DNA from: Bacteroidota bacterium
Lineage (GTDB): Bacteria > Bacteroidota > Bacteroidia > AKYH767-A > OLB10
Reading direction: 5' to 3'
DNA: 64,000 nucleotides
Assembly: GCA_046052065.1 (NCBI GenBank)
Contig: JBJOND010000004.1
Coordinates: forward strand, 5,007-69,006
Positions within the stretch are counted from its first letter, which is position 1. The number at the start of each line of letters is the position of its first letter. Under the pieces are notes generated by a model. That model saw only the letters and a list, made by a program, of their open reading frames with translations. It was not told where the DNA came from and did not search any database. Shown piece by piece: positions 42,807-61,545 of this stretch. Made by a program: the position numbers and the translations under genes.

Positions 42807-42807
42807 T

Positions 42808-43236
42808 TTATTTTTCTTGAGGGAACCACTCCTTCGATGTTCTGTAAACGACACCCTTGAATAAGGCAACTGTTTGTCCTTGTGCATTCGTTACAGTAAT
42901 CGAATAAATTCCAATTTTATTAGTTAAACTTTTTTCTTCTGAAATAGCATAAATCACATCGTCTTCTTTCAAAGAGACTGTATGCGATATCGATGTTTCA
43001 ACGGAGACACTCTGGCGACCATGCGAATTGGAGGCGAATGCTAAGGCACTATCTGCAAGCGAATAGGTTATTCCACCGTGAGCAATACCAAATCCATTGA
43101 GCATTTCTTTTCTGATTTTCATTTTCAACTTACAAAAACCAGGAGTTACTTCAAGCACTTCAATACCTAGCCACTGACTAAACCAATCTTGGTCGTACAT
43201 TTTGGCAACAATTTTATTCGCTTGATTGGTATCCAT
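42808..43236 (-). CDS. paaI: Hotdog-fold hydroxyphenylacetyl-CoA thioesterase PaaI
   Basis: 142 aa with GIAHGGITYSLADSALAFA. It sits between paaH and the thiolase. Confidence 0.8.
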   Translation of the reverse strand: MDTNQANKIVAKMYDQDWFSQWLGIEVLEVTPGFCKLKMKIRKEMLNGFGIAHGGITYSLADSALAFASNSHGRQSVSVETSISHTVSLKEDDVIYAISEEKSLTNKIGIYSITVTNAQGQTVALFKGVVYRTSKEWFPQEK

Positions 43237-43248
43237 AAATGCTTCGAT

Positions 43249-44421
43249 TTAATTAAAAAACGATTTGTTTGCTCTTGCCATCTGACGCAAAAGTACAGAT
43301 GCGCGATAACGATCATCGTGATATTCTACATAAAGCGAATCCAAAATCGATAACACTTTCTCTACTCCTATTTCATCTGCCCACTTGAGTAATCCCTTGG
43401 GATAGTTCACCCCTTTCGTCATAGATAAATCGATGTCTTCTGCTGTAGCAATTTGATAATAAAGTGCATCAGCTGCTTCATTGATGAGCATTGCTAAAAC
43501 ACGAATTACAATTTCACTTGATAAGTCATCATCTGATTTTACTTCTGGCTTAACAGCATTTTCACTGTAATCGTAATACCCCATTCCTGTTTTTCTTCCG
43601 AGTCTTCCTGACTCAACCATCTTCTTTTGAATTAATGAAGGACGAAAACGAGCATCGAAATAAAACTGTTTCCATACAGTTTCAGTCACGGTGTAATTGA
43701 TATCATTCCCAATTAAATCCATCAATTCAAATGGCCCCATTTTAAATCCTCCTTTCTCTCGCATAGCAGCATCAACAGTCGCCATATCAGCAATTCCTTC
43801 TTCAACAATCTTTAGCGATTCACCATAATAAGGACGAGCAACACGATTTACAATAAACCCTGGAGTATCTTTAGCAATAACAGGAACTTTTTTCCAAGCC
43901 TGCATTAATGATTTACAATCTTCGGCTAAACCATCTTTCGTTTGAAGCGCTGGAATAACTTCTACCAAAGGCATTAATGGAGCTGGATTAAAAAAATGCA
44001 ATCCGATTACACGTTCTGGATGATTACAAGCTGCAGCAACAGATGTAACAGATAATGAAGAAGTATTAGAGGCAAGAATACAATTAGGGTTGACTACTTT
44101 TTCTATAGCAGAGAAAATTTCTTTTTTTACTTCTAGAATTTCAACTACTGCTTCAATAATTAAATCAGCGGAAGAAAATCCATTTAACGCATCTATAACG
44201 GTAATGCGTTTACACAAAGCCGTCATATCATCTGACGAAATTTTTCCTTTCTCCACAAGTTTAGCTAATGAAGCTTCTGTTTTTTTCAAAGCATTACTAG
44301 CAGATCCTTCTTTCGCATCAAATAAAAAAACCTGATGACCGGCAGCGGCAGCCACTTGTGCAATTCCACTACCCATAGCGCCAGCACCTATAACACCAAC
44401 AATTGATTTTTCTGATAACAT
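43249..44421 (-). CDS. paaH: 3-hydroxyacyl-CoA dehydrogenase (PaaH-like)
   Basis: The start was moved to the Met at 44421 (MLSEKSIVGVIGAGAMGSGIAQV, Rossmann GxGxxG), 1 nt after the upstream stop. The 3HCDH N- and C-domains are recognisable. Confidence 0.85.
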   Translation of the reverse strand: MLSEKSIVGVIGAGAMGSGIAQVAAAAGHQVFLFDAKEGSASNALKKTEASLAKLVEKGKISSDDMTALCKRITVIDALNGFSSADLIIEAVVEILEVKKEIFSAIEKVVNPNCILASNTSSLSVTSVAAACNHPERVIGLHFFNPAPLMPLVEVIPALQTKDGLAEDCKSLMQAWKKVPVIAKDTPGFIVNRVARPYYGESLKIVEEGIADMATVDAAMREKGGFKMGPFELMDLIGNDINYTVTETVWKQFYFDARFRPSLIQKKMVESGRLGRKTGMGYYDYSENAVKPEVKSDDDLSSEIVIRVLAMLINEAADALYYQIATAEDIDLSMTKGVNYPKGLLKWADEIGVEKVLSILDSLYVEYHDDRYRASVLLRQMARANKSFFN

Positions 44422-44422
44422 A

Positions 44423-45199
44423 TTATTCTCCTTTAAACACAGGCAATCGTTTTTCAAGAAAGGCGTTAACTCCTTCTTTATGATCGTAAGTTTGTCCCGC
44501 TTGCGCCTGATATACTTCTTCTAACTTAAGTTGTTGCTTTAAATCGGATGTTGCAGATTGATTCAAAAGCATTTTCGTTAAAGCGATACCTTTAGTAGGC
44601 ATATTCGCCAGCTGATTACAAATTTTTTCTACTTCCGCTTTAAGCGAAGCATCTTCAAAACACTTATAAACCATTCCCATCTCTGCTGCTTCTTTTCCTC
44701 CAACTTTATCTGCAAGCATCATTAATCCTGCTGCACGTTGAGAACCTATCAATCTTGGTAGAAAAAACGTCCCGCCGCTATCCGGAATTAATCCGATTTT
44801 ACTAAAGGCCTGAATAAATGATGCAGACTCACCCGCAAGTATGATATCACATGCTAACGCGATATTTGCTCCTGCACCAGCAGCTACACCATGCACAACT
44901 GCAACAACAGGCTTTAGTGCTTCACGGATTTTAATGATAATTGGATTATAATGCTCATCAACTATTTTCTGAATTCCTGGACCATCTGGAGCAATTGCTT
45001 CAGCTAAATCCTGACCTGCACAAAATGCTTTTCCTTCCGCTTCAATCAAGATACAGCGAACACTATTATCAGACGAAAAAGTATCAAGTGCGGCTTGCAT
45101 TTGCAAAGCCATTTCGCGATTAAAACTATTAAACTTTTCTGGACGGTTAAGCTTGATGCGGCCTACCCCATTTTCAATCGTAGCAGTAATTAAACTCAT
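44423..45199 (-). CDS. paaG: Enoyl-CoA hydratase/isomerase (crotonase fold; PaaG or PaaF type)
   Basis: 258 aa. Crotonase motifs GKAFCAGQDL and VHGVAAGAGANIALACD. I cannot separate PaaG from PaaF by eye. Confidence 0.75.
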   Translation of the reverse strand: MSLITATIENGVGRIKLNRPEKFNSFNREMALQMQAALDTFSSDNSVRCILIEAEGKAFCAGQDLAEAIAPDGPGIQKIVDEHYNPIIIKIREALKPVVAVVHGVAAGAGANIALACDIILAGESASFIQAFSKIGLIPDSGGTFFLPRLIGSQRAAGLMMLADKVGGKEAAEMGMVYKCFEDASLKAEVEKICNQLANMPTKGIALTKMLLNQSATSDLKQQLKLEEVYQAQAGQTYDHKEGVNAFLEKRLPVFKGE

Positions 45200-45266
45200 C
45201 TTAATAATTCTTACTACAAAGAAAACTAAAAAAGGCTTTCGTTATGTGATAATTGTGAATGAAGTA

Positions 45267-45761
45267 TCAGTGACATTTGAACTGCTCAAACGGCTGACAA
45301 CATGCATTACAAAAGTGCAAAGCTTTACAGGCTGTAGAACCAAATCGGCTAGTAAGAGAAGTATTGGTTGAACTACAAAAAGGACATGCGACAGGTCCTT
45401 TATCGTTATTGGCAAAAGGATGTAAATTTTCGAAAGAAATCTTCTCAGGTGGAGCGATACCATAGGCACGTAACTTCTCCTTTGTTTCGTCCGACATCCA
45501 GTCGGTTGTCCAAGCTGGTTTGTAAATCGTTTTAATTAATGGAGTTAAGCCGACCAATAAAAGTTTAGCTCTGATTTGCTCTTCCATATTTTTCAAAGCT
45601 GGACAACCAGAATAAGTCGGAGTAATATCCACTTGAACATTAGAATAAGTTAAACGAACATCGCGTACTACACCTAATTCAACAATACTGATTGCTGGAA
45701 CTTCGGGATCAGGAATGGAGTTCAGCAAGTCCCAGATTTCACGAACATCAAGTGTTACCAT
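45267..45761 (-). CDS. paaD: Phenylacetate-CoA oxygenase subunit PaaD (PaaJ in alternative nomenclature)
   Basis: 164 aa. An N-terminal Fe-S-assembly-like domain (IPDPEVPAISIVELGVV) is followed by a C-terminal Cys4 ribbon (CPFCSS...CNACCQPF). Confidence 0.85.
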   Translation of the reverse strand: MVTLDVREIWDLLNSIPDPEVPAISIVELGVVRDVRLTYSNVQVDITPTYSGCPALKNMEEQIRAKLLLVGLTPLIKTIYKPAWTTDWMSDETKEKLRAYGIAPPEKISFENLHPFANNDKGPVACPFCSSTNTSLTSRFGSTACKALHFCNACCQPFEQFKCH

Positions 45762-46525
45762 ACTGCATCGGGATACATTCGAGGCAAGTATTGCATTTCA
45801 GCCAGTAAAAACCCAAAATGTTCTGAATGCACACCTTTCAATCCGCCAGAAGCAAAATAGTTGGTGTTTTCAGGAATAGACAAAGTAGCTTTAGCGAAAA
45901 TTTCGGTTACCATTTTTGTCCATTCATCACGAACATTCTCTTTATCGAATGTAATTCCATTACTGATTAATAATGTATCGATGCTATCTTGCTCGAAAAG
46001 TTCATTAGTAAACGACCATAATTCGTTCAATGAATTTTGAATACGCTGATGACTTTCAGCAGTACCATCTCCAAGACGAACAACCCATTCACCTGAATGA
46101 CGTACATGATACGTTACTTCTTTTATCGATTTAGCTGCAAGTCCTGAAATTGTTTCATCAGTACTCTTCATTAAATCGCGAAACATTAGGTAATCGAAAC
46201 AACCATTTAAAAACAATTTCATCATCGTAAATCCGAAATCTTTATTGTCAGGTTGCTCTACCATTAATTTATTTCTAAACTCTCTTTCTCCTCTGTGAAA
46301 TGCGTAAACATCTTCTGTTTTCCCATTACCTTCTAGTTGTGCGGCATAGGTATAAAAACCACGTGCCTGCCCAATAAGATCTAGCGCTACATTACTCATT
46401 GCAATATCTTCTTCGAGAATTGGTCCATGGCCTGTCCATTCAGAAATTCGTTGCGCATGAATCAATGAATTATCGGCAATACGAAGACAAAATTCAACCA
46501 ATGCTTTATTTAAATCCGTCATCAT
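45755..46525 (-). CDS. paaC: Phenylacetate-CoA oxygenase subunit PaaC
   Basis: 256 aa, helical ferritin-like. Position and size match PaaC. It overlaps paaD by 7 nt and paaB by 4 nt. Confidence 0.8.
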   Translation of the reverse strand: MMTDLNKALVEFCLRIADNSLIHAQRISEWTGHGPILEEDIAMSNVALDLIGQARGFYTYAAQLEGNGKTEDVYAFHRGEREFRNKLMVEQPDNKDFGFTMMKLFLNGCFDYLMFRDLMKSTDETISGLAAKSIKEVTYHVRHSGEWVVRLGDGTAESHQRIQNSLNELWSFTNELFEQDSIDTLLISNGITFDKENVRDEWTKMVTEIFAKATLSIPENTNYFASGGLKGVHSEHFGFLLAEMQYLPRMYPDAVW

Positions 46526-46812
46526 ATTTGTTTTAAACCGTCAGCTGTCTTAAAAAAGTTAGGAGAGCGATACATTTTATCATTTGCAGGATCGAAGAAT
46601 GAACCCGAATCTTCTGGAGAGGAAGCAATGATTGCAGCACTTGGAACTACCCAAATATTAATGCCTTCTTGTCTTCTGCTATATACATCTCTTGCATTTA
46701 AAAGTGCAATTTCCCCATCAGGAGCGTGAACGCTACCTGCATGCTCATGAGCAGCACCTTGTTTTTTTTGAGTGAATACTTCCCACGTAGGCCATTGATG
46801 ATTGGAATCCAT
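46522..46812 (-). CDS. paaB: Phenylacetate-CoA oxygenase subunit PaaB
   Basis: 96 aa. WPTWEVFTQKKQGAAHEHAGSVHAPD is the typical PaaB N-terminus. Confidence 0.9.
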   Translation of the reverse strand: MDSNHQWPTWEVFTQKKQGAAHEHAGSVHAPDGEIALLNARDVYSRRQEGINIWVVPSAAIIASSPEDSGSFFDPANDKMYRSPNFFKTADGLKQI

Positions 46813-46831
46813 TTTATTGAAACTTAATTTA

Positions 46832-47782
46832 TTAATTCACTTTTTTCTTTTCAGCATATGCTTTAGCAGCATCGCGCACCCATTGTCCGTTGGAATGCGC
46901 ATCATTACGTTGCTTCAAACGCAACTTATTACAAGGACCATTACCATTAATTACCTGAAAAAATTCATCCCAGTTAATTTCACCAAAATCATAATGGCGA
47001 GTTTCTTCATTCCACTTCAATTTATCATCAGGAACAGTTAGTCCAATAGCCTTAGCCTGTTCAACTGTTCTATCGATGAATCGCTGACGTAAATCGTCGT
47101 TAGTATACAACTTCACCTTCCATTTCATAAGATCGGCACTGTTTGGCGACTCCTTATCAGACGGACCAAACATCATTAGAGATGGCCACCACCAACGGTT
47201 CATAGCATCCTGAGCCATTTCCTTTTGCTCTTGAGTACCTCTCATCAGATAGGCTAAAATCTGATAACCTTGTTTGTTATGAAAATTCTCTTCTCTGCAA
47301 ATACGTAACATCGCGCGAGAATATGGTCCGTAAGAACACTTGGCCAATACCGTTTGATTTACGATTGCGGCACCATCTACTAACCAACCAATTGCACCGA
47401 TATCGGCCCAAGTTAAAGTTGGATAATTGAAAATGGAAGAATATTTTGCTTTCCCTGCCAATAACTGATCAATCATTTCGGAGCGATCCATGCCTAATGT
47501 TTCAGCAGCACTGTAAATGTATAAACCATGACCGGCCTCATCTTGAACCTTTGCGATTAGGATTGCTTTTCGTGCTAAAGAAGGTGCTCGCGTTATCCAA
47601 TTCCCTTCAGGCAGCATTCCAACAACTTCTGAATGAGCATGTTGCGACATCATTCTTAACAATTGTTTACGATACTTCTCAGGCATCCAATCTTTGGGCT
47701 CGATTACTTTACCGGCTTGAATACTATCGTTGAATGCATTTTCCATTTCGGATAAATCATCCGTTTTAACATTTATGTCCAT
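46832..47782 (-). CDS. paaA: Phenylacetate-CoA oxygenase catalytic subunit PaaA
   Basis: The start was moved to the Met at 47782 (MDINVKTDD...). It is a di-iron ferritin-like protein with HAHSEVVG and QDEAGHGLY. About 316 aa, as expected for PaaA. Confidence 0.9.
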
Positions 47783-47947
47783 CGATTTAAATAGTCTTAT
47801 TAACTTTGCTAAAATAATAGTTACGACTAACCTACGCAAATGAGATTCGTCAGATTAAAATAACATTTTTTTGAACTTAAAGTTTACACGAAGATGTTAA
47901 GATTTTGTGTAACATCGTAGAAAATTTGCTGTAGCACTTCAACACTA

Positions 47948-48792: not shown

Positions 48793-51267
48793 ATGAACCA
48801 GGAGAATCCAAACGTGCACGATTACAAAATAAACAACCCCAATAACGAACAACAGAATGAAGGCGAAAACACCATTAATATTTCGCAAATAATTAATAAG
48901 TATTTTTTACGCTACTGGTACCTTTACATCTACACATTAAGTATTGCTTTAGTTTCTGCTTACTTTTATAATTGGTACGCAGACAAAGTCTATTTTTCTT
49001 CTTGCACTGTATTAATTAAAGATGAAAAGAAGAATGTTAACAGTAGTGATCTATTAACTCAACTAGGTGCTTTTAACAATGAAGGTGGAATTGAAAATGA
49101 AATCGGCATCATACGTTCAAGAATGCTTATTTCAAAAACAATTGAAGACTTACAATTATATAAAAGCTATTATTTAATTGGAGATTTAAAAACATCAGAA
49201 GTTTTTGCATTAAAACCATTTGATCTAAAAGAAGACACATTATATAGTCTGGCCTACAATGCTACTATTAATCTTGAAATATTAAGTAGTAACAAATACA
49301 AACTCTCTTATCAAAAAGGAAATGTAGAGCATATTGGATACTACCTGTTCAATCGAAAAATCAGCAATGATTTAGGAATATTTTCAATTGATAAGACTTC
49401 AGATTTTAGCCGACAACCTTACGATTCGAAAAACTTTTCGAAGCGAAAATTTATCATTCGTTTAGCTGACAAAAACATGCTAACCGATATTTATCAAACT
49501 GCCTTAAAAGCTGAACCTATCAGTAAGCAAGCATCGATGCTTCAGATTTCTATTCAAGGAGCCACGCCATCAAAGAATGAAGCTTTCTTAAATAAGCTTT
49601 GCGAGCTTTATGTTATGAAAGGAATTGAAGTAAAGAATGAATACGCGGTAAACACACTTAATTTCATTGAGCAACAATTAGGCGCATTAACGGGAGAAAT
49701 AAATGAGAATGAAGTTAACGTAGAAAAATTCAGAGTATCTAGAGGAATTACTGATTTATCAATTGAAGCAAATGCCTATTTAGAAAGTGTAAAAAACTTC
49801 AATGGTCAAATTTCACAATTGGCAGTACAGAGCAGTTTCTTAGACTATCTAGGAGATTATGTAAAAACAGATAGCAAAAATTTAACTGGAAATATATCAC
49901 CAGGAAGTATTTTAGTTAACGACCCGCTTTTACAAAGTTTGGTTCTTAAGCTTAATGAACTAGAGAATAAGAAAAAATCTCAGTCCAACCTATCCAAAGA
50001 AGATAACCCTTTGATGGTAAGTTTGAATACAGAGATTGCAACCACCAAAGCAGCATTATCAGAAAATATTAAATCGTTAAAAAGTGGAATCACCGCCTCG
50101 CTTAATGAATCTAAAACTCAAAGAAGTGAAGTTGAAGATAAATTAAGAAGGTTACCTACTGCTCAGCGCGAGTTGCAAGGAATGTTAAGAGGATCCAACA
50201 TTAAAGAACAACTTTATTCTTACTTACTACAGAAAAAAGCAGAAACAGCAATTTTATTGGCCTCAACAACTGCCGATAATCGTGTGATTGATAACGCAAG
50301 AACATTCATAAAACCACTCAAGCCAATAAAGAGTTTAAGCTATACTATTGCTGTTTTATTCGGATTAATTCTACCTGCATTATTCATCTACATCAGAACA
50401 GCTTTTAATGATCGTATTATCGACCGTAACGACTTGGATGCAAGAACGAATATTCCGGTAATTGGCATGATAGGATTAAGCGCATCGAAATCAAGTTTGG
50501 TCGTAACTGAAAAACCTAATTCCCATATCTCTGAAGCATTCAGAACCATCCGTACCAACTTACAATACTTCAATCAAGGAAATCAAAAAGCGACTATTCT
50601 AGTAACATCGTCTATTTCTTCGGAAGGAAAAAGTTTTACATCCGTAAACCTTGCTTGCATGATGGCAATGTCGGGACGTAAAACAATTCTTGTAGGTTGC
50701 GACTTACGTAAGCCGAAAATTACAATTGGCTTTGACTTCGTTTCTGAAATTGGTTTAAGTAACTATTTGATTGGATTAAATTCTGAAAAAGAAATTATTC
50801 AAAACTCGGGTACAATTCCTAATCTGGATATTATCTTGTCAGGGCCTAAGCCTCCTAACCCATCTGAATTAATCATATCACCTAAGATGGATGAGTTATT
50901 TGTTTATCTGAAAGCAAACTACGACTACATTATTTTAGATACTCCGCCAATTGGATTAATTACCGATGCCATGGTATTATCGAAATATGTGGATGTAAAT
51001 ATTTATTTAGTTCGTCAGCGTGTAACTAGAAAGCAACACTTGGGCTTTATTAACAAACTATACAACGAAGGCAAACTGAAGAATGTATGCATTGTACTTA
51101 ATGCAATTAAATCTTCCAGCAGCACTTATGGCTATGGTTATGGTTATGGTTATGGTTACGGATATGGCTACGGGTATGGTTACGGGTATTACGAAGAAGA
51201 TAAGGAAAAGAGAAATTTAAAATCTACTATTAAAAAGCTTTTTAAACGAAAGAGTTCCAAAGCCTAA
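48793..51267 (+). CDS. wzc: Wzc-type chain-length determinant / BY-tyrosine kinase fusion
   Basis: 824 aa. It has a Wzz-like periplasmic region between two TM helices and a kinase domain. The kinase carries Walker A SSISSEGKSFTS, Walker A' VGCDLRKP and Walker B YIILDTPP. The C-terminal Tyr cluster is (YG)10YY. Confidence 0.9.
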   Translation: MNQENPNVHDYKINNPNNEQQNEGENTINISQIINKYFLRYWYLYIYTLSIALVSAYFYNWYADKVYFSSCTVLIKDEKKNVNSSDLLTQLGAFNNEGGIENEIGIIRSRMLISKTIEDLQLYKSYYLIGDLKTSEVFALKPFDLKEDTLYSLAYNATINLEILSSNKYKLSYQKGNVEHIGYYLFNRKISNDLGIFSIDKTSDFSRQPYDSKNFSKRKFIIRLADKNMLTDIYQTALKAEPISKQASMLQISIQGATPSKNEAFLNKLCELYVMKGIEVKNEYAVNTLNFIEQQLGALTGEINENEVNVEKFRVSRGITDLSIEANAYLESVKNFNGQISQLAVQSSFLDYLGDYVKTDSKNLTGNISPGSILVNDPLLQSLVLKLNELENKKKSQSNLSKEDNPLMVSLNTEIATTKAALSENIKSLKSGITASLNESKTQRSEVEDKLRRLPTAQRELQGMLRGSNIKEQLYSYLLQKKAETAILLASTTADNRVIDNARTFIKPLKPIKSLSYTIAVLFGLILPALFIYIRTAFNDRIIDRNDLDARTNIPVIGMIGLSASKSSLVVTEKPNSHISEAFRTIRTNLQYFNQGNQKATILVTSSISSEGKSFTSVNLACMMAMSGRKTILVGCDLRKPKITIGFDFVSEIGLSNYLIGLNSEKEIIQNSGTIPNLDIILSGPKPPNPSELIISPKMDELFVYLKANYDYIILDTPPIGLITDAMVLSKYVDVNIYLVRQRVTRKQHLGFINKLYNEGKLKNVCIVLNAIKSSSSTYGYGYGYGYGYGYGYGYGYGYYEEDKEKRNLKSTIKKLFKRKSSKA
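51127..51192 (+). repeat. In-frame TAYGGN hexanucleotide repeat encoding (YG)10-YY tail of Wzc
   Basis: The reading is tat ggc tat ggt tat ggt tat ggt tat ggt tac gga tat ggc tac ggg tat ggt tac ggg tat tac, read directly from the sequence. Confidence 0.95.
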
Positions 51268-52639: not shown

Positions 52640-53383
52640 ATGACTATTAAAAACGCAAGTACGATGTTAGCAGCATTAAAAAACCCAATAGCTGCTATAA
52701 AATTTAAACTCGGAAATAAGTCTGCAATGCATGATGCTGTTATATTGGACAGCGTAAAACATTTATGGGGCCCAAATGCAGATTTAACACCTTGGAAAAA
52801 CGCATTGAAAGAACTTAAGAATAACGATTTAATAGCCCCTAATAAAAACATACATCAAACCATAGTTGGCAATAATTTAAATACCACATTTGGAAAATGG
52901 ATTTATTGCTGCATAAGAGTTACTAAACCCAATACAGTTATAGAAACAGGTGTTGCACACGGTTACTCTTCATGGATTATTTTGAATGCGCTTAACAAAA
53001 ACAATAAAGGTGTCTTGTATAGCATCGACCTTCCTAACAACGATACAAATAGCGATTATAATTTTAAAGAACAACCAACCACTGGATGGCTTGTCCCTGA
53101 TACATTAAAAGATCGTTGGAAGCTTAATTTAGGTGATGCTAAAGTTTTACTGCCTGAAATACTAAACGAAATAAAAGATCTCGATATCTTTTTTCATGAT
53201 AGCGATCACAGTTACGAACACATGAAATATGAATTTGAAACCTCATATCCATTTATTGTAAACGGAGGACTCTTATTAAGCGATGATGTGCATAAAAATG
53301 TAGCATTTTCAGAATATGTAGCTACTAATAATTTAAAAGCACTTCAGTTTAATAAAGGTGGAGCTGCTATAATTAAAAAATAA
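52640..53383 (+). CDS. Class I SAM-dependent methyltransferase (TylF/Methyltransf_24-like)
   Basis: 247 aa. Motif I VIETGVAHGYSS, a metal/acid cluster FFHDSDHSYEH, and LLLSDDV. Confidence 0.7.
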   Translation: MTIKNASTMLAALKNPIAAIKFKLGNKSAMHDAVILDSVKHLWGPNADLTPWKNALKELKNNDLIAPNKNIHQTIVGNNLNTTFGKWIYCCIRVTKPNTVIETGVAHGYSSWIILNALNKNNKGVLYSIDLPNNDTNSDYNFKEQPTTGWLVPDTLKDRWKLNLGDAKVLLPEILNEIKDLDIFFHDSDHSYEHMKYEFETSYPFIVNGGLLLSDDVHKNVAFSEYVATNNLKALQFNKGGAAIIKK

Positions 53384-54553
53384 GTGAATACAGTTTACAT
53401 CTACATATCACCTTACGACATTCTTCGACCTAGAACAAACCAGGTAAGCGATGTTCGTTTTTGTGATGGATTTTTGCAGAATGGCAGAGTCATTCATCTA
53501 GTTGTTCCTTTCGTTAAGCGAGAAGACAATATTTCAAAAGAGGAAGTCCCCCAAATCTATGGTGTATCAGATAAACTAAATATTCATTATTTAAAAACTG
53601 ATTTTAAGTCAGATGTAAGCGGCAAAATAAACTTATTTAAAATTATCATTCTAAATTATCTTCAGATAAGAAAACTTACAAGAGATAAAAAATGTAATTA
53701 TGTAGTTATTTCAAGAAGTATTGCCATTCTATTTCCGTTCTTAATAACAAAAGCTTTTAACAGAAAAAAATTGAAATTCACCTATTGGGCTCATGACTTT
53801 AGCAAGAAAAAACTATTCCGTTGGGCTTATGGACTATGTGATAATATCATTGGAACTAATTCATCAATTATCAACTCGATTAATAAATCAACTAACTATC
53901 CAATAAACAGAACAATCATTTCTTCGAATCCAATTACGCAAAATCAGGCGGATGATTATATGGAGAAAATAGCGGCAAGAACTATTCTTAAAATTGATTC
54001 TAAAAAACCAGTTGTTGTTTATACCGGTAAACTTGCAATTGATTACAATCTAGAAATAGAATATATACTTAAGGCTGCTAAAAAACTACCAGACTATACA
54101 TTTATTTTCACTGGAGGAAAACCAATCGCAGTAGATTATTGGAAAGGATGGTGCAATGAAAAAGGGATTAGCAATGCAAAATTCACAGGTTACATTAACG
54201 ACTATCAAAAAATCAAGTATTATCAGTTTGCTGCAGATGTTCTTGTTTCCTACTATACAAAACAAGGACACGATGTAAGCTATAACTTCCCAAACAAAAT
54301 TTGTGAATATATGTTAACGGGCAATCCGATTATAACTCCCAACTACCCTGCAACACAAGATATATTAAATGAACATAACTGCTATTTTACAGCACCAGAA
54401 AACGAAACTGAATTAGCCAAGACAATAAAAATAGCGATTGAAGATAAAGAAAAGTCGACGGCCATTGCTAATCAAGCAAGGTTTGATGTTAAACAAAACA
54501 CTTTCAAGATCAGAGTCTCAAGCATCATTAATTTTTTAGAAAGCAATGAATAA
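53384..54553 (+). CDS. GT-B fold glycosyltransferase (GT4/GT1-like)
   Basis: 389 aa with a GTG start. The C-terminal half carries a GT-B type acceptor/donor motif (FPNKICEYMLTGNPIITPNYPATQDIL). Confidence 0.6.
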   Translation: MNTVYIYISPYDILRPRTNQVSDVRFCDGFLQNGRVIHLVVPFVKREDNISKEEVPQIYGVSDKLNIHYLKTDFKSDVSGKINLFKIIILNYLQIRKLTRDKKCNYVVISRSIAILFPFLITKAFNRKKLKFTYWAHDFSKKKLFRWAYGLCDNIIGTNSSIINSINKSTNYPINRTIISSNPITQNQADDYMEKIAARTILKIDSKKPVVVYTGKLAIDYNLEIEYILKAAKKLPDYTFIFTGGKPIAVDYWKGWCNEKGISNAKFTGYINDYQKIKYYQFAADVLVSYYTKQGHDVSYNFPNKICEYMLTGNPIITPNYPATQDILNEHNCYFTAPENETELAKTIKIAIEDKEKSTAIANQARFDVKQNTFKIRVSSIINFLESNE

Positions 54554-55472
54554 ACTTTCAAAATATTTGAGTTATGGTTATAACACTAAAGTAGGTAAAT
54601 TAGCTAGCCTTATTTTACCCGAAAATATTTCTATTTACTTCAACGATTTAACTAATGACACAGCATCAAATCATATCTCAAATGATTTAATTAGTTTAAA
54701 TCAGATTAAATCTAATAATTACTGTGTTAATCAAATAAAAGACATTTGTCAAAATTCAAATTTGGAAGGTGTTTTTAGTTGTTATGTTTTTGGAAGCATA
54801 GCAAGCAATGATACAAACTCATACAGCGATTTTGATGGGATTTTAATCTACGACGAGCATAAATTAAATAGCAACAAGCAAATCTTTCAGCTGCGACGAC
54901 TAATCAAAAAAATCAATTTATATTCACATCTACAAGATAGTTTACAGCATCACGGAATTTTAGTTATTGGAACAAATGAATTGGCAAACAAAAATGATGA
55001 ACTAATTTTCAATCTACTAAAAGAAGCATTGTTAATATACGGTGGGCCAGCTCAGAGTAAACCGCAAGAAAACAGAAACTGTTACACTGGTCCATTTATT
55101 AAACTTAAAAAAAGTATTCTTCATAAATTAAACAATGAAGAGAAATGGGACAACCAATACTACTTTAAAAATATGCTCAGCGAATTATTACTATACCCCT
55201 GTTCATATTTGCAATTTAAAAACCAGAAATACATTTCTAAAAAAGATAGTTTTGAAATGATTAAAGACATCTTCAACAAGCAAGATGTTCAAACAATAAA
55301 TCAATTAGAACAAATCAGGCTAAATTGGAAACAGGAAAAATTGAACGAGTCGTCAATTAATCAACGTACCATTGCCTCCTTTAAAAAAACACAAAAGACC
55401 TCAATAAAAGATATTGATACGATGAAATCAATCAAGTTAAGACTGATTGAATTACTAAACAGTAAAGGATGA
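54546..55472 (+). CDS. Divergent nucleotidyltransferase-fold (Pol-beta/ANT-like) protein, paralogue 1
   Basis: 308 aa. The NTase signature is YVFGS(84)IASNDTNSYS-D95-F-D97-GILIY, followed by SLQHHGILVIG and LLIYGGP. It overlaps the upstream GT by 8 nt. Confidence 0.6.
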   Translation: MNKLSKYLSYGYNTKVGKLASLILPENISIYFNDLTNDTASNHISNDLISLNQIKSNNYCVNQIKDICQNSNLEGVFSCYVFGSIASNDTNSYSDFDGILIYDEHKLNSNKQIFQLRRLIKKINLYSHLQDSLQHHGILVIGTNELANKNDELIFNLLKEALLIYGGPAQSKPQENRNCYTGPFIKLKKSILHKLNNEEKWDNQYYFKNMLSELLLYPCSYLQFKNQKYISKKDSFEMIKDIFNKQDVQTINQLEQIRLNWKQEKLNESSINQRTIASFKKTQKTSIKDIDTMKSIKLRLIELLNSKG

Positions 55473-56869
55473 TTAAAATAGCATTTATAGTCGATAAAGG
55501 GTTTATGCAATCAATCGTAGAGAGATGCAGAAAACAACTATTATCTGATTTTAATTGCAGCATTGATAGTATTCAGTGGAACCATGATTTACGAAAAAAC
55601 TTTCCAAAAGCGAAAGTGTATGATTATGTAATTAATTTCACCACCCATACGTTTTTTAAAAAAGAGTATGATCTTGACAACTTAATTCAAATCCCAATTA
55701 TTTCTAATTTAAGAGCAGGTGTTTCTCGTGAACTTTATCAAGGTATAATTAATAATAGCGAGAGTTTCTTAATCAACACAATAAAATCATACGCAGGCAA
55801 ACAATCTATTCAAATTCATGAACATCATTATTTAATCATTCATCATTCCTATAATCGTTCATTTAAGTTTATTAGTGATAAAATACCTGCATTATTGGTT
55901 GAATCTATCAAGCGATACAAAAATACCAATCAAATAATCTGGCAAGATAACCATCCTAAATCGATACCAACAAGACAATACAACTTTGCAATTTTTCTAA
56001 ACAAAATAAAGCACTATCTGAAAACATATTTTACCTACCACTATTGGAAAACAGGTATTATTGATAGTACTATTTCAGAAGTAATAAAGAATAAAACACT
56101 TTTAAAGCAACCAAAGTGGATTTATACAGAAAACAAACGAGACTTTATCGCTGACCCATTTGGATTCACAACGAGCAATGGTGATTATATTATCTATGAA
56201 AAATTTAATTCAATAACTAGAAAAGGACATATTGAAGTTGCAGATAGAATAACACATAAAGTTGTTTTTAAGTTAAAAGCAAACTTTCATTTCAGCTATC
56301 CTTTTGTATTTGAAGATAAAAATGAGATTTACATTATTCCTGAAGTACATCAAACCAATTCTATTGATTTGTATAAATGGAATGACGATAAACAAGAAAT
56401 GATATTGGTTAAGACCATGATTGATGATTTTCCTGGTGTAGATAATTCCATATTGAAGCACAATAATAAATACTGGCTGTTTTGCACAACATCAAAACAT
56501 AAAATGTCGGATCATCAGTTAAACCTTTTTTATGCAGATGAACTTACAGGAGATTGGACACCGCATCCACTCAACCCTATTATCACATCTATTGTAAGTG
56601 CACGACCTGCTGGTAGTTTTATAAAATCAGGAGATAAAATAATTCGACCATCACAAAACAGCGGATTAACTTACGGAAATAAAATAGTATTGAATGAAAT
56701 AACTGAACTAACTGAAACAACCTATTCAGAAAAAAGAGTTGAAGTAATTGCACCAGAAGATTTCAAAAATAAAAATATTGTTGGAGTACATACCATTAGT
56801 ACCATAGGCAATTATACTTTAGTAGATGCTAAGTTCACAGGATTTAAAATTGGAAAACTTCATTTTTAA
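55469..56869 (+). CDS. Two-domain protein: unassigned N-terminal alpha/beta domain + C-terminal beta-propeller-like domain (GH43/DUF377/GINT1-like by recall)
   Basis: 466 aa with an ATGA overlap with the upstream gene. C-terminal blade-like motifs: FIADPFGF, HFSYPFVFEDKNEIYIIPE, NNKYWLFCT, GDWTPHPLNPI and RPAGSFIKSGDKIIRPSQ. Confidence 0.5.
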   Translation: MIKIAFIVDKGFMQSIVERCRKQLLSDFNCSIDSIQWNHDLRKNFPKAKVYDYVINFTTHTFFKKEYDLDNLIQIPIISNLRAGVSRELYQGIINNSESFLINTIKSYAGKQSIQIHEHHYLIIHHSYNRSFKFISDKIPALLVESIKRYKNTNQIIWQDNHPKSIPTRQYNFAIFLNKIKHYLKTYFTYHYWKTGIIDSTISEVIKNKTLLKQPKWIYTENKRDFIADPFGFTTSNGDYIIYEKFNSITRKGHIEVADRITHKVVFKLKANFHFSYPFVFEDKNEIYIIPEVHQTNSIDLYKWNDDKQEMILVKTMIDDFPGVDNSILKHNNKYWLFCTTSKHKMSDHQLNLFYADELTGDWTPHPLNPIITSIVSARPAGSFIKSGDKIIRPSQNSGLTYGNKIVLNEITELTETTYSEKRVEVIAPEDFKNKNIVGVHTISTIGNYTLVDAKFTGFKIGKLHF

Positions 56870-56870
56870 T

Positions 56871-57848
56871 ATGCAGATTATCAACTATCCTTTAACTGGT
56901 TATCAAAAAGAAGATTATTTTGATTTGTATGATCATGTTGTTGATTCGTTGAAGAACAATGCTGAAGTTAAGTGCATTTGTACTTTTGGTGGTGTTAATC
57001 AGCCTGGCATTTCAGATATCGACCTACTGATTGTATTTAAAAATGGGAGCTCTTTTAGTGGTGATATCATATCAGATTTAAGTGCTAAAGAACAATCATT
57101 ATTTACGCATGGCATCATGGCCTTATCAGAGCAGCATTGGTTTCAGAATAAAGCATTTGCTATGTGGGATAATCAGAAATTATTAGTTGGAGAAGAACCT
57201 TTAGGAGAAGAAATTTATGTTAATGAAACTGAATTAACCATACTTAAAAAACAAACTGCATTAGAGTTTTTGTTTACGAATTATATCGACTTGACTTTAC
57301 AAAACGAATATGGAATTATTAAATTAAGAGATTTATTACAACATACCAAAGGAATTATCTACGATCTAAATTATCTGCACTTAACTAATACACCAATACA
57401 TAAGTTTATTACGCAAGCAACAGAATGGATTACTAACTGGCATTTGCAACAACCAAGAGATGAAGAATTGATAAAATGGTTTAAAGCATTTTACAAAGCT
57501 TACTCTGAATTTATCCAATCCATATTTGATTCAAACAAAATTTATTTGCCAATATTTGTTAAAAGAAATTTTTCTAAGAACATTGCTTTAAAAGAAGCCA
57601 CAGTTATAAAATATACACGAAGTGGAATACTTTTACCCTCCGTTGTTGCGCCAATAGGGCAAAAAAAAGTACTGAAGTTACTGAACAAGTTAAACAAGTT
57701 TGAGTTTTCAATACCCAGTACGGATATTGCTGAAAATAGTATCTTAGAAAAGCGAATTCAGTTCTTCAAAGAAATGAAAATGTATAATCAACTACATTTT
57801 CCAAAACTTGGATTACTTACTACCAGTTTAATGTCAAAATTAGTTTAA
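56871..57848 (+). CDS. Divergent nucleotidyltransferase-fold (Pol-beta/ANT-like) protein, paralogue 2
   Basis: ATG at 56871 lies 1 nt after the upstream stop; the track's earlier start at 56826 lies inside the previous gene. The NTase signature is CTFGG(41)VNQPGIS-D49-I-D51-LLIVF, followed by SLFTHGIMALS and LLVGEEP. It is collinear with paralogue 1. Confidence 0.6.
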   Translation: MQIINYPLTGYQKEDYFDLYDHVVDSLKNNAEVKCICTFGGVNQPGISDIDLLIVFKNGSSFSGDIISDLSAKEQSLFTHGIMALSEQHWFQNKAFAMWDNQKLLVGEEPLGEEIYVNETELTILKKQTALEFLFTNYIDLTLQNEYGIIKLRDLLQHTKGIIYDLNYLHLTNTPIHKFITQATEWITNWHLQQPRDEELIKWFKAFYKAYSEFIQSIFDSNKIYLPIFVKRNFSKNIALKEATVIKYTRSGILLPSVVAPIGQKKVLKLLNKLNKFEFSIPSTDIAENSILEKRIQFFKEMKMYNQLHFPKLGLLTTSLMSKLV

Positions 57849-57850
57849 CA

Positions 57851-58567
57851 ATGGAATTTAAAAACCCTGGTGCATTAATTGAAAATAATTGGAGATACGA
57901 TTTCTTAAAAGACTATTTTAAGAATAATCCATTTAATGAAGCGACTCTTCTTGATTTAGGATGTGGTCCACGCCCCTACTATTCTATTTATAAAAACTAT
58001 TTCGACAAATCAATTGGTGCAGAAATGGCGGATATGCCTTTTCCGCAAAAAGCTATCGACATTTATTGCTCTGCCACTGATGTACCGTTGCCTGATGAAA
58101 GTATAGATTGTATTTTGTGTACAGAAGTAATGCAGGATATGAAAGAACCATCCGAATTAATTAATGAATGTTATCGTTTATTAAAAAAAGGCGGGACCTT
58201 AATTCTTACAACACCCTACCTTGTCCCTATTGCTGATGGTGAATGGGATAATTATCGTTTCACACAGTACGGTTTAAAATACACAATTGAAAAAGGAGGA
58301 TTTAACGATTTAGTTGTTTATCCTGTAAGTGATGTAGTTGGTGCAGGAATTACACTTCTTGTTAAACCAATCTTGCGCCTCTGGAATATATTAGCCAAGG
58401 CAACACGTATTAATTTCTTGCGCCAGTGGTATAATCCATTGCTGTTTATTACCGTAATGATTCCTCAATTACTTTACATGGCCATACGACCATTACCTAT
58501 TTTCAAATCAATACTTAAAAAATTCAGCTACGGACCAATAGGTTATATTACGGTATCAAAAAAATAA
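57851..58567 (+). CDS. Class I SAM-dependent methyltransferase (Methyltransf_11-like) with hydrophobic C-terminal segments
   Basis: 238 aa. Motif I LLDLGCGPRPYY, post-I/II IDCILCTEVMQDM, and LLKKGGTLILTTP. The C-terminus contains the hydrophobic stretches VVGAGITLLVKPIL and LLFITVMIPQLLYMAI. Confidence 0.75.
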   Translation: MEFKNPGALIENNWRYDFLKDYFKNNPFNEATLLDLGCGPRPYYSIYKNYFDKSIGAEMADMPFPQKAIDIYCSATDVPLPDESIDCILCTEVMQDMKEPSELINECYRLLKKGGTLILTTPYLVPIADGEWDNYRFTQYGLKYTIEKGGFNDLVVYPVSDVVGAGITLLVKPILRLWNILAKATRINFLRQWYNPLLFITVMIPQLLYMAIRPLPIFKSILKKFSYGPIGYITVSKK

Positions 58568-58568
58568 G

Positions 58569-59645
58569 ATGAAGGTTTTACATATCATTTGGTCGTCGAA
58601 TATTGGTGGGATAGAAAGTGTTGTGCTTAATTTAGCTATAGCACAACAAAAGAATGGTAATGTAGAACCAACCATTTTCGCTGCAAAATCAGAAGGCCCT
58701 TTAATTGAAAAAGCGAAAGAGAAAAACATAGAAATTATAAGTGGAGACTTCAAAAAAGGGAATAACAATTTTTCAAAATTAAATATGTGTGTCAATTTAT
58801 TTGCAAAGTTTGACATACTCCACCTTCATTCATTTAATCCCATTATTGCATTAGCTGCTATTCAATCAAAAAAGAAAATTGTTTATACTGAACATGGTAA
58901 CTTTGCTTTCGAAAGAAAGCAAGGATTAGCAGAGCTGATCTCTAAAAAGCTACAGTACTATTTCTTAAATAAATTCACGCATCACATAACATTTAACTCC
59001 AACTTTTCGAAAGGTACCGCTATAGAAAGATATCAACTGACAAAAAAATCGTTAAGTGTGGTTTATAACGGTGTCGACTTACCTTCTTCGCTTCCAAATG
59101 AAAAACAAATTTCGGATATAATTCGAATTGGATTTGTAGGCCGACTAGTAGAGGTAAAACGAATTGACCGACTTCTTGAAACAATTGCAGCCATCAAAGA
59201 TAAATCAACCATTAAAGTAGAACTAGTTGGTGATGGTCCCTTGAAGAATAAAATCTTACAACAAATTACTGCTACTAATTTAAACGATACTATTCAACTA
59301 TTAGGTTTCAAAAACGACTTATCTACATATTACAATCAATGGGATTTGTTGATTGCCCCTTCTTCGAATGAGGCTTTCGGACTGGTAGCCATTGAGGCTT
59401 ATTCGCATGGTTGTGCAGTTGCTGTTTTTAACGATGGTGGTGGATTAGCAGAATTAGTAAGTCAATGTGAACCTGAAATGGTTTTTAATACTACTAATGA
59501 ACTAACCTTTTTTATTGAATCACTTATCAATAAAACAATCAACGTGAATGAAATCAACCTGATTAATAATCGCAGAGCTTTCGCGAAGAAATTCTCAATA
59601 GAACAAATGGAAGCTGGCATTAAACAAGTTTACTTATCTTTATAA
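58569..59645 (+). CDS. GT4-family glycosyltransferase
   Basis: 358 aa. N-terminus MKVLHIIWSSNIGGIESVVLNLA and C-terminal motif PSSNEAFGLVAIEAYSHGCAVAVFNDGGGLAELV. Confidence 0.85.
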   Translation: MKVLHIIWSSNIGGIESVVLNLAIAQQKNGNVEPTIFAAKSEGPLIEKAKEKNIEIISGDFKKGNNNFSKLNMCVNLFAKFDILHLHSFNPIIALAAIQSKKKIVYTEHGNFAFERKQGLAELISKKLQYYFLNKFTHHITFNSNFSKGTAIERYQLTKKSLSVVYNGVDLPSSLPNEKQISDIIRIGFVGRLVEVKRIDRLLETIAAIKDKSTIKVELVGDGPLKNKILQQITATNLNDTIQLLGFKNDLSTYYNQWDLLIAPSSNEAFGLVAIEAYSHGCAVAVFNDGGGLAELVSQCEPEMVFNTTNELTFFIESLINKTINVNEINLINNRRAFAKKFSIEQMEAGIKQVYLSL

Positions 59646-59646
59646 C

Positions 59647-61545
59647 ATGTGTGGAATTAACGGATTTATGATGCTTGGAAATAACTTGCCAGTAGAGGCA
59701 AGTGAACACCTCGTAAAAATGAATCAACGAATTCAGCACCGAGGTCCGGATGATCAGGGGACTTATATCAATACAGATAAAGGCCTTGCACTTGGTCATT
59801 TACGACTAAGCATTATTGATTTGTCGGATGCAGGTCATCAGCCAATGTTTGATGAGCGAGGAAACTGCATTGTTTTCAATGGTGAAATTTATAATTATCA
59901 AACTATAAAAAAGGATATCTCCGATTATACTTTTAAATCGGACAGTGATACAGAAGTTTTATTACACCTTTATCAGAAAGAAGGACATACTGCATTGCAT
60001 AAACTAAATGGAATGTTTGCATTTGCCTATTTCGATAATAAAAATAATGTATTGAAATTAGCAAGAGACAGAGCCGGAAAGAAACCTCTCTACTACTCTA
60101 CTATGGGAGGTGTATTCTCCTTTTCATCTGAAATTAAAGCATTACTTGAATTACCTTGGATAAAAAAAGAACTTGACGAAGAGGCGCTTTATCATTTTTT
60201 AACTTTCAATCATATTGATTCACCATCCACATTTTTCAAAGGAATTAAAAAGCTTGGTGCGGGTGAATACATGACCGTTAGTGCAAATGGAATTGTAGAA
60301 AAGAGTTCTTTCTACGATATAAACTATCAAAATTTAACCCATACCTCCGAACAAACGATTGAACATACCTTGTTTGAAAAATTAAACAAGTCTGTTGACT
60401 TAAGAATGGTATCTGATGTACCAGTTGGCGCATTCTTAAGCGGCGGTGTAGATTCGAGTGCCGTGGTAGCGATGATGAGAGCAAGAACTGAGGGAACAAT
60501 CAAAACATTTTCTGTAGGATTTGAAGGACAACCAGATTATGACGAACGCATTTATGCGCAGAAGATATCTAAACAATTCAACACCGATCATTACGAAAAA
60601 ATAGTTGGGAAAGAAGATATTGAAAACTTTTTACCTTCTATTGTTTCAATTTTTGATGAACCAATGGCTGATGCAACTTGCATTCCTGTATATTTCATTT
60701 CTGAATTAGCAAGAAAGCATAATACGATTGTTGTACAAACTGGTGATGGTGCGGATGAATTGCTGGCAGGCTATAATAGCTGGCAAAAATATGAGCAAAT
60801 TTACCCTTATTACAATCTACTAAATAATATTCCTAAGAGTTTATTAAAACTTGCTTCCAATAGCATAGGTTATGATGATAACAAAACAGGGATTAAAGAA
60901 ATAATTTACCGCGCAGCTAACGGACAAGAATTATTTTGGGGCGGAGCAAAAGCATTTAAAGAAAGTACCAAAAAGCAAATTCTATCTGCTGAATTTTTAA
61001 GTCATAATGGCTCGTTGGATTCGTATTCGGTAATTAAAAAACATTTAACCGCATTTGAAAAAATTCGCGACCAGCATATTTGGTTAAGTGATAAAGACTG
61101 GATGTGTTACCTCGGCTACAAGTATTTAATTCCTGCTAAATACCTCTATCGCATGGACCGAATTGGCATGGCTCATAGCATAGAAATAAGAAATCCCTTT
61201 TTAGATTACGAATTTGTAGACTACGCGCTATCGATTCCGTATTCATTAAAATCTAAAAACAAAATACCCAAGTACATTTTAAAAAAATCGTTAGAGGGTA
61301 CTCTCCCAAACGATATCCTTTACCGTAAAAAAATGGGCTTTTGTGTACCATTAAGAGAGTGGTCACAAGATATCATCATCCGAAATATTGAAAATGATTT
61401 AAGTAGCTTTTGTAAAAATGCGGGCTTCTTTAGCGAGTCGGGATTAAGAACGCAAATTAATGCCATGAAAAATGGAAAGAAAGATTATACCAATAATCTC
61501 TGGACGATTTATTTTATCATGCAATGGTTTAAAAAATGGATGTAA
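59647..61545 (+). CDS. asnB: Asparagine synthase (glutamine-hydrolysing) family amidotransferase
   Basis: 632 aa. It has the N-terminal nucleophile MCGI, the GATase-II motif HRGPDD and the PP-loop FLSGGVDSS. Confidence 0.9.
   Translation: MCGINGFMMLGNNLPVEASEHLVKMNQRIQHRGPDDQGTYINTDKGLALGHLRLSIIDLSDAGHQPMFDERGNCIVFNGEIYNYQTIKKDISDYTFKSDSDTEVLLHLYQKEGHTALHKLNGMFAFAYFDNKNNVLKLARDRAGKKPLYYSTMGGVFSFSSEIKALLELPWIKKELDEEALYHFLTFNHIDSPSTFFKGIKKLGAGEYMTVSANGIVEKSSFYDINYQNLTHTSEQTIEHTLFEKLNKSVDLRMVSDVPVGAFLSGGVDSSAVVAMMRARTEGTIKTFSVGFEGQPDYDERIYAQKISKQFNTDHYEKIVGKEDIENFLPSIVSIFDEPMADATCIPVYFISELARKHNTIVVQTGDGADELLAGYNSWQKYEQIYPYYNLLNNIPKSLLKLASNSIGYDDNKTGIKEIIYRAANGQELFWGGAKAFKESTKKQILSAEFLSHNGSLDSYSVIKKHLTAFEKIRDQHIWLSDKDWMCYLGYKYLIPAKYLYRMDRIGMAHSIEIRNPFLDYEFVDYALSIPYSLKSKNKIPKYILKKSLEGTLPNDILYRKKMGFCVPLREWSQDIIIRNIENDLSSFCKNAGFFSESGLRTQINAMKNGKKDYTNNLWTIYFIMQWFKKWM

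Follow-up and report, generated by a model that had tools for sequence, protein, structure and literature searches.

Paired nucleotidyltransferase-fold proteins in Wzx/Wzy-type polysaccharide loci of Bacteroidota and other bacteria

A Wzx/Wzy-type polysaccharide locus occupies the plus strand from about 47.9 kb to the end of a 64,000-nucleotide stretch of DNA from a Bacteroidota bacterium (assembly GCA_046052065.1, contig JBJOND010000004.1, positions 5,007 to 69,006; the whole stretch is called the window below). Three of its genes, named here A, B and C, form a tightly packed cassette, in which A and C encode nucleotidyltransferase (NTase)-fold proteins. The evolutionary unit is the pair A+C and not the trio. 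The pair is a standing component of Wzx/Wzy-type loci, its genes being co-translated or, rarely, fused, and it represents a known enzyme fold in a widespread form that has no name and stands in a biological setting new for this fold. The genes of the cassette are as follows.

54546..55472, plus strand: gene A, 308-aa two-domain NTase-fold protein (Pfam, AlphaFold2 (AF2) model, Foldseek)
55469..56869, plus strand: gene B, 466-aa two-domain protein
56871..57848, plus strand: gene C, 325-aa NTase-fold protein (AF2 model, Foldseek, sub-threshold Pfam matches)

A sequence-only reading of the window had described these open reading frames (ORFs) as a translationally coupled cassette, and both the frames (308, 466 and 325 aa) and their junctions are as it gave them. 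Read directly from the sequence, the stop of the upstream GT4 glycosyltransferase (GT) gene and the start of A overlap by 8 nt (ATGAATAA, 54546-54553), A and B overlap in an ATGA (55469-55472), B and C are separated by 1 nt (TAA-T-ATG), and C and the downstream methyltransferase gene by 2 nt. The mechanically derived ORF of C begins at an upstream in-frame ATG (56826, inside the end of B) and encodes a 340-aa version. The real start is at 56871, because all homologues begin at MxIINYP. Some database homologues of C (P0034, P0035) use an upstream ATG start.

Conservation of the A-C pair

An exhaustive hidden Markov model (HMM) search yielded 1352 clusters of the C family at 50% identity. One genome per species was scanned, which gave 80 loci, annotated with our own HMMs; 56 of them have enough flanking sequence. 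An A-family gene lies at most 3.5 kb from the C gene in 54 of these 56 species-level loci. Among the carriers of the pair are Bacteroidota, Acidobacteriota, Aminicenantes, Planctomycetota and Gammaproteobacteria. Overlaps of 3-16 nt between the two genes occur in at least 15 loci. One Saccharibacteria ORF at a contig end (L082:9032-10929) is a single-chain A-C fusion.

The space between A and C is filled in various ways. It may contain nothing, B, B together with a sulfotransferase gene on the opposite strand, a sulfotransferase, a methyltransferase, or a GT4 gene. Thus the trio, which the sequence-only reading had taken for the unit, dissolves on comparison of neighbourhoods, B being one of several alternative inserts. 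The order Wzc-Wzx-methyltransferase-GT4-A-B-C-methyltransferase-GT4-AsnB-GT4-Wzy is kept down to 36-50% identity. In 44 loci the surroundings of the pair were tabulated: an AsnB-type gene is found within 5 kb in 31 and a GT4 gene within 3 kb in 33 of them. Sulfotransferase-like ORFs are present in 15 of 35 loci and absent from the window, and therefore represent variable decoration; a link of the pair to sulfation was considered and dropped.

In many B-containing relatives an opposite-strand sulfotransferase gene stands between A and B and breaks the unidirectional operon (L022:7604-8416 (-), L027:7621-8475 (-), with equivalents in L015, L018, L023, L024, L030, L031, L037, L051 and L059). Three GenBank records of metagenome-assembled genomes (MAGs), L009, L021 and L022, labelled 'Chitinophaga pinensis', 'Bifidobacterium sp.' and 'Bifidobacterium breve', carry a Bacteroidota-type locus with 38-70% identity; the labels look unreliable.

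Distant A-like and C-like homologues were also found in Archaea (L070-L081; Woesearchaeota, Methanosarcinales). They are about 400-500 aa long and their genes often overlap convergently. In one case (L075:3593-7994) they adjoin genes of a DprA/SLOG protein and a phosphoribosyltransferase (PRTase)-like protein, not glycan genes. The archaeal homologues may be a functionally different branch, and the claims made here are therefore limited to full-length bacterial loci.

Database copies of the A, B and C proteins, from a Bacteroidota MAG, are all named 'hypothetical protein', and NCBIfam contains no family for any of the three. This agrees with the earlier impression that the arrangement is undescribed. 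No literature on the A-C pair or on bacterial GINT1_N proteins, to which B belongs, was found; prior work in subscription journals is possible.

Paralogy of A and C

The relationship between A and C is too distant for pairwise comparison. The sequence-only reading had proposed to test whether their pairwise score exceeds that of shuffled controls, and the test gives no signal (BLASTP E=0.44; Smith-Waterman z=0.4, 500 shuffles). Comparison of narrow family alignments by hhalign gives a score of 20.3 against 16.0+-2.5 for shuffles, 4 of 100 of which reach it. Broad profiles were built from 67 A-like and 76 C-like sequences of many phyla, with the fusion protein removed and match columns only. 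They align over 165 collinear columns with a probability of 88%, E=3e-6 and a score of 49.8; column-shuffled controls score 14.8+-2.7 with a maximum of 22.4, and none of the 60 reaches the observed value. A first broad comparison, with E=5e-16, was discarded because the A-C fusion of L082 had been included in the C alignment and inflated the score.

The alignment spans the GS/GG motif, SDxD, QHHG/FTHG and a shared helix motif RxNW/xxNW. It also matches the two collinear motif pairs that had been noticed by eye, SLQHHG with SLFTHG and LLIYGGP with LLVGEEP. As judged by profile comparison, A and C are genuine, very old paralogues that share the NTase core and the helical domain; of the comparisons made, the one with broad profiles is the only one that bears out this part of the sequence-only reading.

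Fold and active site

Profiles and predicted structures assign A and C to the two-domain NTase-fold proteins of the Pol-beta superfamily. In Pfam, A scores above the thresholds of both Polbeta (28.3 against 26.9 bits) and NTP_transf_2 (26.2 against 21 bits). In its AF2 model (predicted local distance difference test (pLDDT) 83, predicted template modelling score (pTM) 0.83) a low-confidence N-terminal extension (residues ~1-55) is followed by the NTase core (~56-172) and a C-terminal helical domain (181-306). The top Foldseek match is AAD(9) (PDB 6sxj, E=2e-4), then GlnE (1v4a), which is second-best, AadA, LinB and MNT. C has only sub-threshold NTase matches in Pfam (E=0.012), and 24 of 77 C-family members match NTP_transf_2, none above threshold. 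Its AF2 model (pLDDT 91.9, pTM 0.90) consists of an NTase core (~1-110), a long helical domain (119-221) and an additional alpha/beta subdomain at the C-terminus (~233-325). Here the top Foldseek match is the kanamycin nucleotidyltransferase KNTase (1kny, E=6e-4), accompanied by AAD(9), AadA, HalB and LinB; the Foldseek probabilities of the C model against KNTase, AadA, LinB and MNT are 0.85-1.0.

The models of A and C match the same solved enzymes, AAD(9), AadA, KNTase and LinB, which are aminoglycoside and lincosamide O-nucleotidyltransferases. HMM searches of PDB with the A, C and broad C profiles gave at best an MNT-like core with E about 0.01, and nothing for C. The profile and Foldseek checks proposed in the sequence-only reading confirm the NTase fold and point to no characterised family. 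Both proteins lie outside LicD and the characterised ANT families (Pfam, NCBIfam and 77 C-family members). Neither transmembrane segments nor signal peptides are predicted in A, B or C from sequence.

The superfamily is marked by hG[GS], where the second core helix begins, by [DE]h[DE]h on strand 2 and by a third carboxylate, h[DE]h, on strand 3 (PMC2794190). The corresponding segments of A and C are the following.

54792..54836, plus strand: A, active-site motif G83-S84...S94-D95-F96-D97 (hG[GS] and S-D-x-D)
54936..54956, plus strand: A, D131-S-L-Q134-H135-H136-G137, directly before predicted strand beta3 (139-142)
56988..57023, plus strand: C, active-site motif G40-G41...P45-G46-I47-S48-D49-I50-D51 (family alignments)
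57099..57113, plus strand: C, L77-F78-T79-H80-G81, directly before predicted strand beta3 (83-86)

The hG[GS] element is represented by F82-G83-S84 in A and F39-G40-G41 in C. The [DE]h[DE]h element is found as D95-F-D97-G, opening the predicted strand 97-102 of A, and as D49-I-D51-L, opening the predicted strand 52-56 of C. The A motif G83-S84/S94-D95-D97 is invariant in 28 homologues and kept in 66-67 of 68 A-like sequences across phyla. The C motif is invariant in 36 close homologues, while G40, G46, S48, D49 and D51 are invariant in the alignment of 77 diverse homologues and kept in 74 of 77 sequences across loci. Taken over 68 A-like and 77 C-like sequences of many phyla, the G/S and SDxD positions are at least 95% conserved; a loss of the acidic residues among homologues, which would have counted against the sequence-only reading, is not observed. 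That reading had written both motifs as hG[GS]-x(7-11)-SDxD. The motif residues are present in both proteins, whereas this expression matches A only, because the spacer in C is 6 residues. In 200 shuffles of the residues of the 125 ORFs of the window, the expression matched 0.000 times per ORF set.

Neither A nor C has the canonical third carboxylate of strand 3, as judged by the AF2 strands and the broad alignments. Strand 139-142 of A (LVIG) contains no acidic residue; E87 of C follows strand 83-86 and is not conserved in the broad family. Instead, an invariant His-Gly directly precedes strand 3 in both proteins. In A, D131, Q134, H135 and H136 are each kept by 66-68 of the 68 sequences, and H80 of C is invariant both in the close-homologue and in the 77-sequence alignments. 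The helical domains contain invariant basic residues, K208, K232 and R258 in A and R153 in C. The full sets conserved across phyla are G83, S84, S94, D95, D97, D131, Q134, H135, H136, K208, K232, R258 and W261 in A, and G40, P45, G46, S48, D49, D51, H80, R153 and W190 in C.

In the L082 fusion the C-like half has ARGG in place of the THG of the family, while the A-like half keeps EHHG. The conserved histidine may thus be retained at only one of the two sites of this protein.

Similarity to known enzymes

The closest solved relatives are ANT(3'')(9)/AadA and ANT(9)/AAD(9) (PDB 5g4a, 6fzb, 6sxj, 7uy4), which combine an N-terminal Pol-beta NTase domain with a C-terminal helical domain, as predicted for A and C. 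They are the best or near-best Foldseek matches for both proteins and their acceptor is a sugar hydroxyl. In AadA, ATP and magnesium are bound by Ser-36, Ser-46, Asp-47 and Asp-49, the catalytic base is Glu-87, the ATP phosphates also touch Arg/Lys of the C-terminal domain, the substrate lies in the interdomain cleft, and its C-ring is contacted by Trp-112 and Asp-182 as well as His/Asn-185 (PMC6065190). The S...S-D-x-D pattern of A and C coincides with the ligand pattern of AadA (PMC6065190), and basic residues of the helical domain are likewise shared with AadA and AAD(9).

However, there are several differences. A and C do not belong to these families on the sequence level (no NCBIfam or PDB HMM match), and the template modelling (TM) scores are only 0.3-0.5. 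They have no equivalent of Glu-87 on strand 3, the position being assigned by spacing, and contain the invariant His-Gly before the strand instead. C has the extra C-terminal alpha/beta subdomain. Finally, A and C occur as a hetero-pair in glycan loci, whereas the ANT enzymes are encoded by single resistance genes.

Two other enzymes resemble the pair in part. KNTase, ANT(4') (1kny), is the top Foldseek match of C, with 11% identity. As reported by Pedersen, Benning and Holden in 1995, it is said to be a homodimer with active sites built from both subunits. A heteromer of A and C could be modelled on it, the two sites then being non-equivalent, with the distinction that here there are two diverged paralogues. 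GlnE (PDB 1v4a, 3k7d) has two diverged modules, each an NTase domain plus a helical domain, that work as a pair, similar to A and C. GlnE differs in being one chain, in targeting a protein tyrosine and in belonging to nitrogen regulation.

Gene B and the downstream methyltransferase

The sequence-only reading had described the middle protein as propeller-like and composed of two domains, and Pfam supports the propeller. The features of B and of the methyltransferase gene linked to it are listed below.

55469..56083, plus strand: B, N-terminal domain (residues 1-~205), shortened degenerate formyltransferase-like (alignment with longer homologues)
56084..56869, plus strand: B, C-terminal domain (residues ~206-466), GINT1_N / GH43-like beta-propeller (Pfam PF24793)
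57851..58567, plus strand: S-adenosylmethionine (SAM) methyltransferase, Methyltransf_11 (Pfam PF08241, E=3e-13)

Residues 224-437 of B match GINT1_N (PF24793) with 128.9 bits and E=2.7e-37 (cut-off 27); all 30 aligned homologues match this family too. The match to GH43 (PF04616) is below the cut-off (21 bits against 32.2), the HMM alignments leave the register of the blades against GH43 ambiguous, and weak matches to GH43 and GH32 are seen in PDB. The invariant residues of B are D229, E244, H274, D325, R379, R393, Q396, E421, H441 and D453. In the N-terminal domain, 4 of 30 longer homologues match Formyl_trans_N (PF00551, best E=7.5e-8). B and its 17 closest relatives have no match to this Pfam family and no WSxHHxD..RG segment, there being a deletion across it.

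B and the methyltransferase encoded at 57851-58567 co-occur perfectly: among 44 loci, 19 have both and 25 have neither. The methyltransferase is thus an obligate partner of B in evolution, and its gene lies beyond the end of the cassette as delimited in the sequence-only reading. Its C-terminus contains hydrophobic segments, with a hydropathy maximum of 1.68 at residue 197, which suggests a membrane anchor; A, B, C and the other methyltransferase differ in this respect. B-C fusions are seen in six cluster representatives of the C family, with the domain order equal to the gene order in the window, and thus B is physically tied to C. On the other hand, members of the wider B family occur in polysaccharide loci of Formosa and Paenibacillaceae with neither A nor C nearby. 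B and the methyltransferase are an optional accessory tailoring module inserted into the pair in one Bacteroidota lineage.

The closest known proteins to B are five-bladed propellers of the GINT1_N / GH43-like type, with bacterial members named 'glucosamine inositolphosphorylceramide transferase family protein'. The long members stand in Wzx/Wzy loci of Formosa, Paenibacillaceae and others, and the family has no assigned activity. Only the clade of B is wedged between, or fused to, the NTase pair, and this clade has lost the formyltransferase-motif segment.

Candidate function of the pair

Our favoured explanation, offered tentatively and at slightly less than even odds, is that A and C together form a heteromeric cytoplasmic nucleotidylyl- or phosphotransferase acting on a sugar hydroxyl, and that B and the methyltransferase tailor the same intermediate. 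By analogy with the KNTase homodimer, soluble cytoplasmic A and C would assemble as a heteromer. Their S-D-x-D and hG[GS] sites would bind Mg-NTP or a donor linked to a nucleoside diphosphate (NDP) in the cleft between the NTase and helical domains. The invariant histidine before strand 3 would stand in for the third carboxylate; in AadA this carboxylate is Glu-87, the catalytic base. The transferred group, nucleotidyl or phospho-linked, would go to a sugar hydroxyl, either on a nucleotide-sugar or on the repeat unit carried by undecaprenyl, and would decorate the sugar or activate it for a later step. B and the putatively membrane-anchored methyltransferase would then act on this intermediate; other lineages have a sulfotransferase, a different methyltransferase or a GT4 gene at this place.

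Several observations weigh against this proposal. The chemistry of all members is deduced from fold and motifs alone, and the Foldseek similarity is modest (E 1e-3 to 1e-4, TM 0.3-0.5). The heteromer is inferred from gene coupling and a single fusion at a contig end. The histidine is placed in the region of AadA Glu-87 by motif spacing and predicted secondary structure, not by superposition. As the h[DE]h carboxylate is missing, one or both proteins could be non-catalytic or use other chemistry. No gene for the synthesis of an unusual NDP-linked donor is present in the part of the locus within the window. Finally, the distant archaeal homologues stand in non-glycan contexts.

A narrower version of the proposal, which we regard as rather improbable, is that A and C are an obligate heterodimeric O-nucleotidylyltransferase. 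The nucleoside monophosphate would be a leaving group for substitution by the neighbours (the AsnB-type enzyme, sulfo- or methyltransferases, B), or it would remain as a lasting nucleotide or phosphodiester decoration.

The main rival is chemistry of the LicD/fukutin type. A and C would then move a phospho-group from a CDP- or NDP-linked alcohol or sugar to a glycan hydroxyl, perhaps sequentially. LicD-family enzymes, including Mnn4, are NTase-fold glycan modifiers (PMC2794190). Like A and C, LicD, fukutin and FKRP are NTase-fold enzymes of glycan biosynthesis with an intact DxD, and they are often encoded by adjacent or cooperating paralogues, as in licD1/licD2 and fukutin/FKRP. Fukutin and FKRP add tandem ribitol phosphates. 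Since such enzymes do not need nucleophile activation in the same way, this chemistry could account for the missing third carboxylate as well. However, it fits the context with neither profile nor structural support. Pfam LicD (PF04991) matches neither A nor C at E<=1 and none of the 77 C-family members at E<=0.1. The top 50 Foldseek matches are ANT, Lnu, GlnE and MNT, with no entry of the FKRP/LicD type among them. The conserved genes of the loci (the window and L001-L062) include no kinase, cytidylyltransferase or alcohol-phosphate synthesis gene that could provide the donor, although such genes may lie elsewhere in the genome. The sequence-only reading had suggested that the cassette attaches or activates a non-sugar substituent of the repeat unit, which it may do. 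In their predicted structures A and C are nearer to the sugar-hydroxyl O-nucleotidylyltransferases (ANT/Lnu) than to LicD/fukutin, and we consider LicD-type chemistry unlikely. The O-methyl-phosphoramidate pathway of Campylobacter, considered as another candidate, was dropped, as none of its defining enzymes is present.

Still less probable is a regulatory role, in which one or both proteins would be pseudo-NTases or protein-modifying NTases, like the paired NTase domains in GlnE or like DrrA, and would govern or scaffold the assembly machinery (GTs, Wzc, AsnB). The structural and sequence matches of A include GlnE and DrrA, the third carboxylate is missing in both proteins, and the pair persists while the inserted tailoring genes change, all of which would be consistent with such a role. 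However, both families keep the residues that bind metal and phosphate (G/S, S-D-x-D) essentially unchanged across phyla, which argues for catalysis in both, and no candidate protein target co-varies with the pair.

A function unrelated to glycans, as an MNT-type antitoxin or defence NTase pair or as ANT resistance genes, is very improbable: the best solved relatives are indeed resistance enzymes, and there are weak NTase-core matches to the MntA antitoxin, to the PADLOC PDC-S09 models and to Hailong HalB, but MntA (NCBIfam NF047752) scores 16.3 bits against a cut-off of 60, the PADLOC matches reach E-values of 1e-4 at best over some 60 residues, and the substrate-base residue of AadA is not conserved. 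The pair has no HEPN or other partner gene and glycan genes on both sides, keeps the same position in polysaccharide operons in 54 of 56 species-level loci and is translationally coupled to GT genes. A tblastn search of 72,556 plasmids with two queries, a C-like protein from Proteobacteria (L054) and an A-like protein from Rhizobiaceae (L064), gave no match. As the PADLOC matches are only weak ones to the MNT core, a defence system was rejected; context and scores together essentially exclude a defence, toxin-antitoxin or resistance role.

Genomic context of the cassette

The order of genes in the locus is Wza-like exporter, Wzc-like tyrosine kinase, Wzx flippase, Methyltransf_24 methyltransferase, GT4, A, B, C, Methyltransf_11 methyltransferase, GT4, AsnB-type amidotransferase, GT4. 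The neighbours of the cassette, apart from the Methyltransf_11 gene listed above, are these.

52640..53383, plus strand: SAM methyltransferase, Methyltransf_24, CmcI-like (Pfam PF13578, E=4.5e-17)
53384..54553, plus strand: GT4 glycosyltransferase (Pfam Glycos_transf_1)
58569..59645, plus strand: GT4 glycosyltransferase (Pfam)
59647..61545, plus strand: AsnB-type glutamine amidotransferase (Pfam; closest TIGR03108, below cut-off)

The trio had been said to be bracketed by two SAM methyltransferases. Both are SAM methyltransferases by Pfam, but the bracket is loose, because the GT4 gene at 53384-54553 separates the upstream one from A. This GT4 gene is syntenic upstream of A in most Bacteroidota loci. 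The upstream methyltransferase (52640-53383) is not strictly linked to the cassette: it occurs in many, although not all, B-containing loci and in one locus that has no B.

The G+C content across the cassette (54000-58000) is 0.30, the minimum of the window, compared with 0.32-0.39 elsewhere. Horizontal acquisition is one possible cause, a relaxed composition of this variable part of the locus another. The Wzc-like tyrosine autokinase (48793-51267) has an unusually regular tyrosine tail at its C-terminus (about 51160-51230), 'STYGYGYGYGYGYGYGYGYGYY', which is a near-perfect YG repeat. The minus strand at 41598-47839, abutting the start of the polysaccharide locus, carries a set of genes of phenylacetate catabolism and beta-oxidation: two genes of the PaaA/PaaC family, PaaD, enoyl-CoA hydratase, 3-hydroxyacyl-CoA dehydrogenase and thiolase.

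Implications

Polysaccharide loci are catalogued mainly as glycosyltransferases and a few tailoring enzymes, and the A-C pair is neither. Its fold is familiar from resistance to antibiotics, but no part in glycan synthesis has been assigned to the pair and its members bear only 'hypothetical' names. Modification or activation of sugars by nucleotidyl or phospho-transfer, if this is what the pair does, would be a new reaction type for capsule and exopolysaccharide biosynthesis. It would also point to a relative of the housekeeping type, and a possible evolutionary source, of the ANT-type resistance enzymes. In particular, heterodimeric nucleotidylylation, if true, would modify glycans by a chemistry that is not described for polysaccharides of bacteria and would be carried by more than 1300 protein clusters in at least six bacterial phyla. 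As B is fused to C in some genomes and tightly linked to the methyltransferase, the pair provides a first functional handle on the unassigned bacterial GINT1_N proteins. Cultivable carriers exist, namely Hanstruepera neustonica JCM 19743 and Winogradskyella aquimaris KCTC 23502, and thus the question is directly testable.

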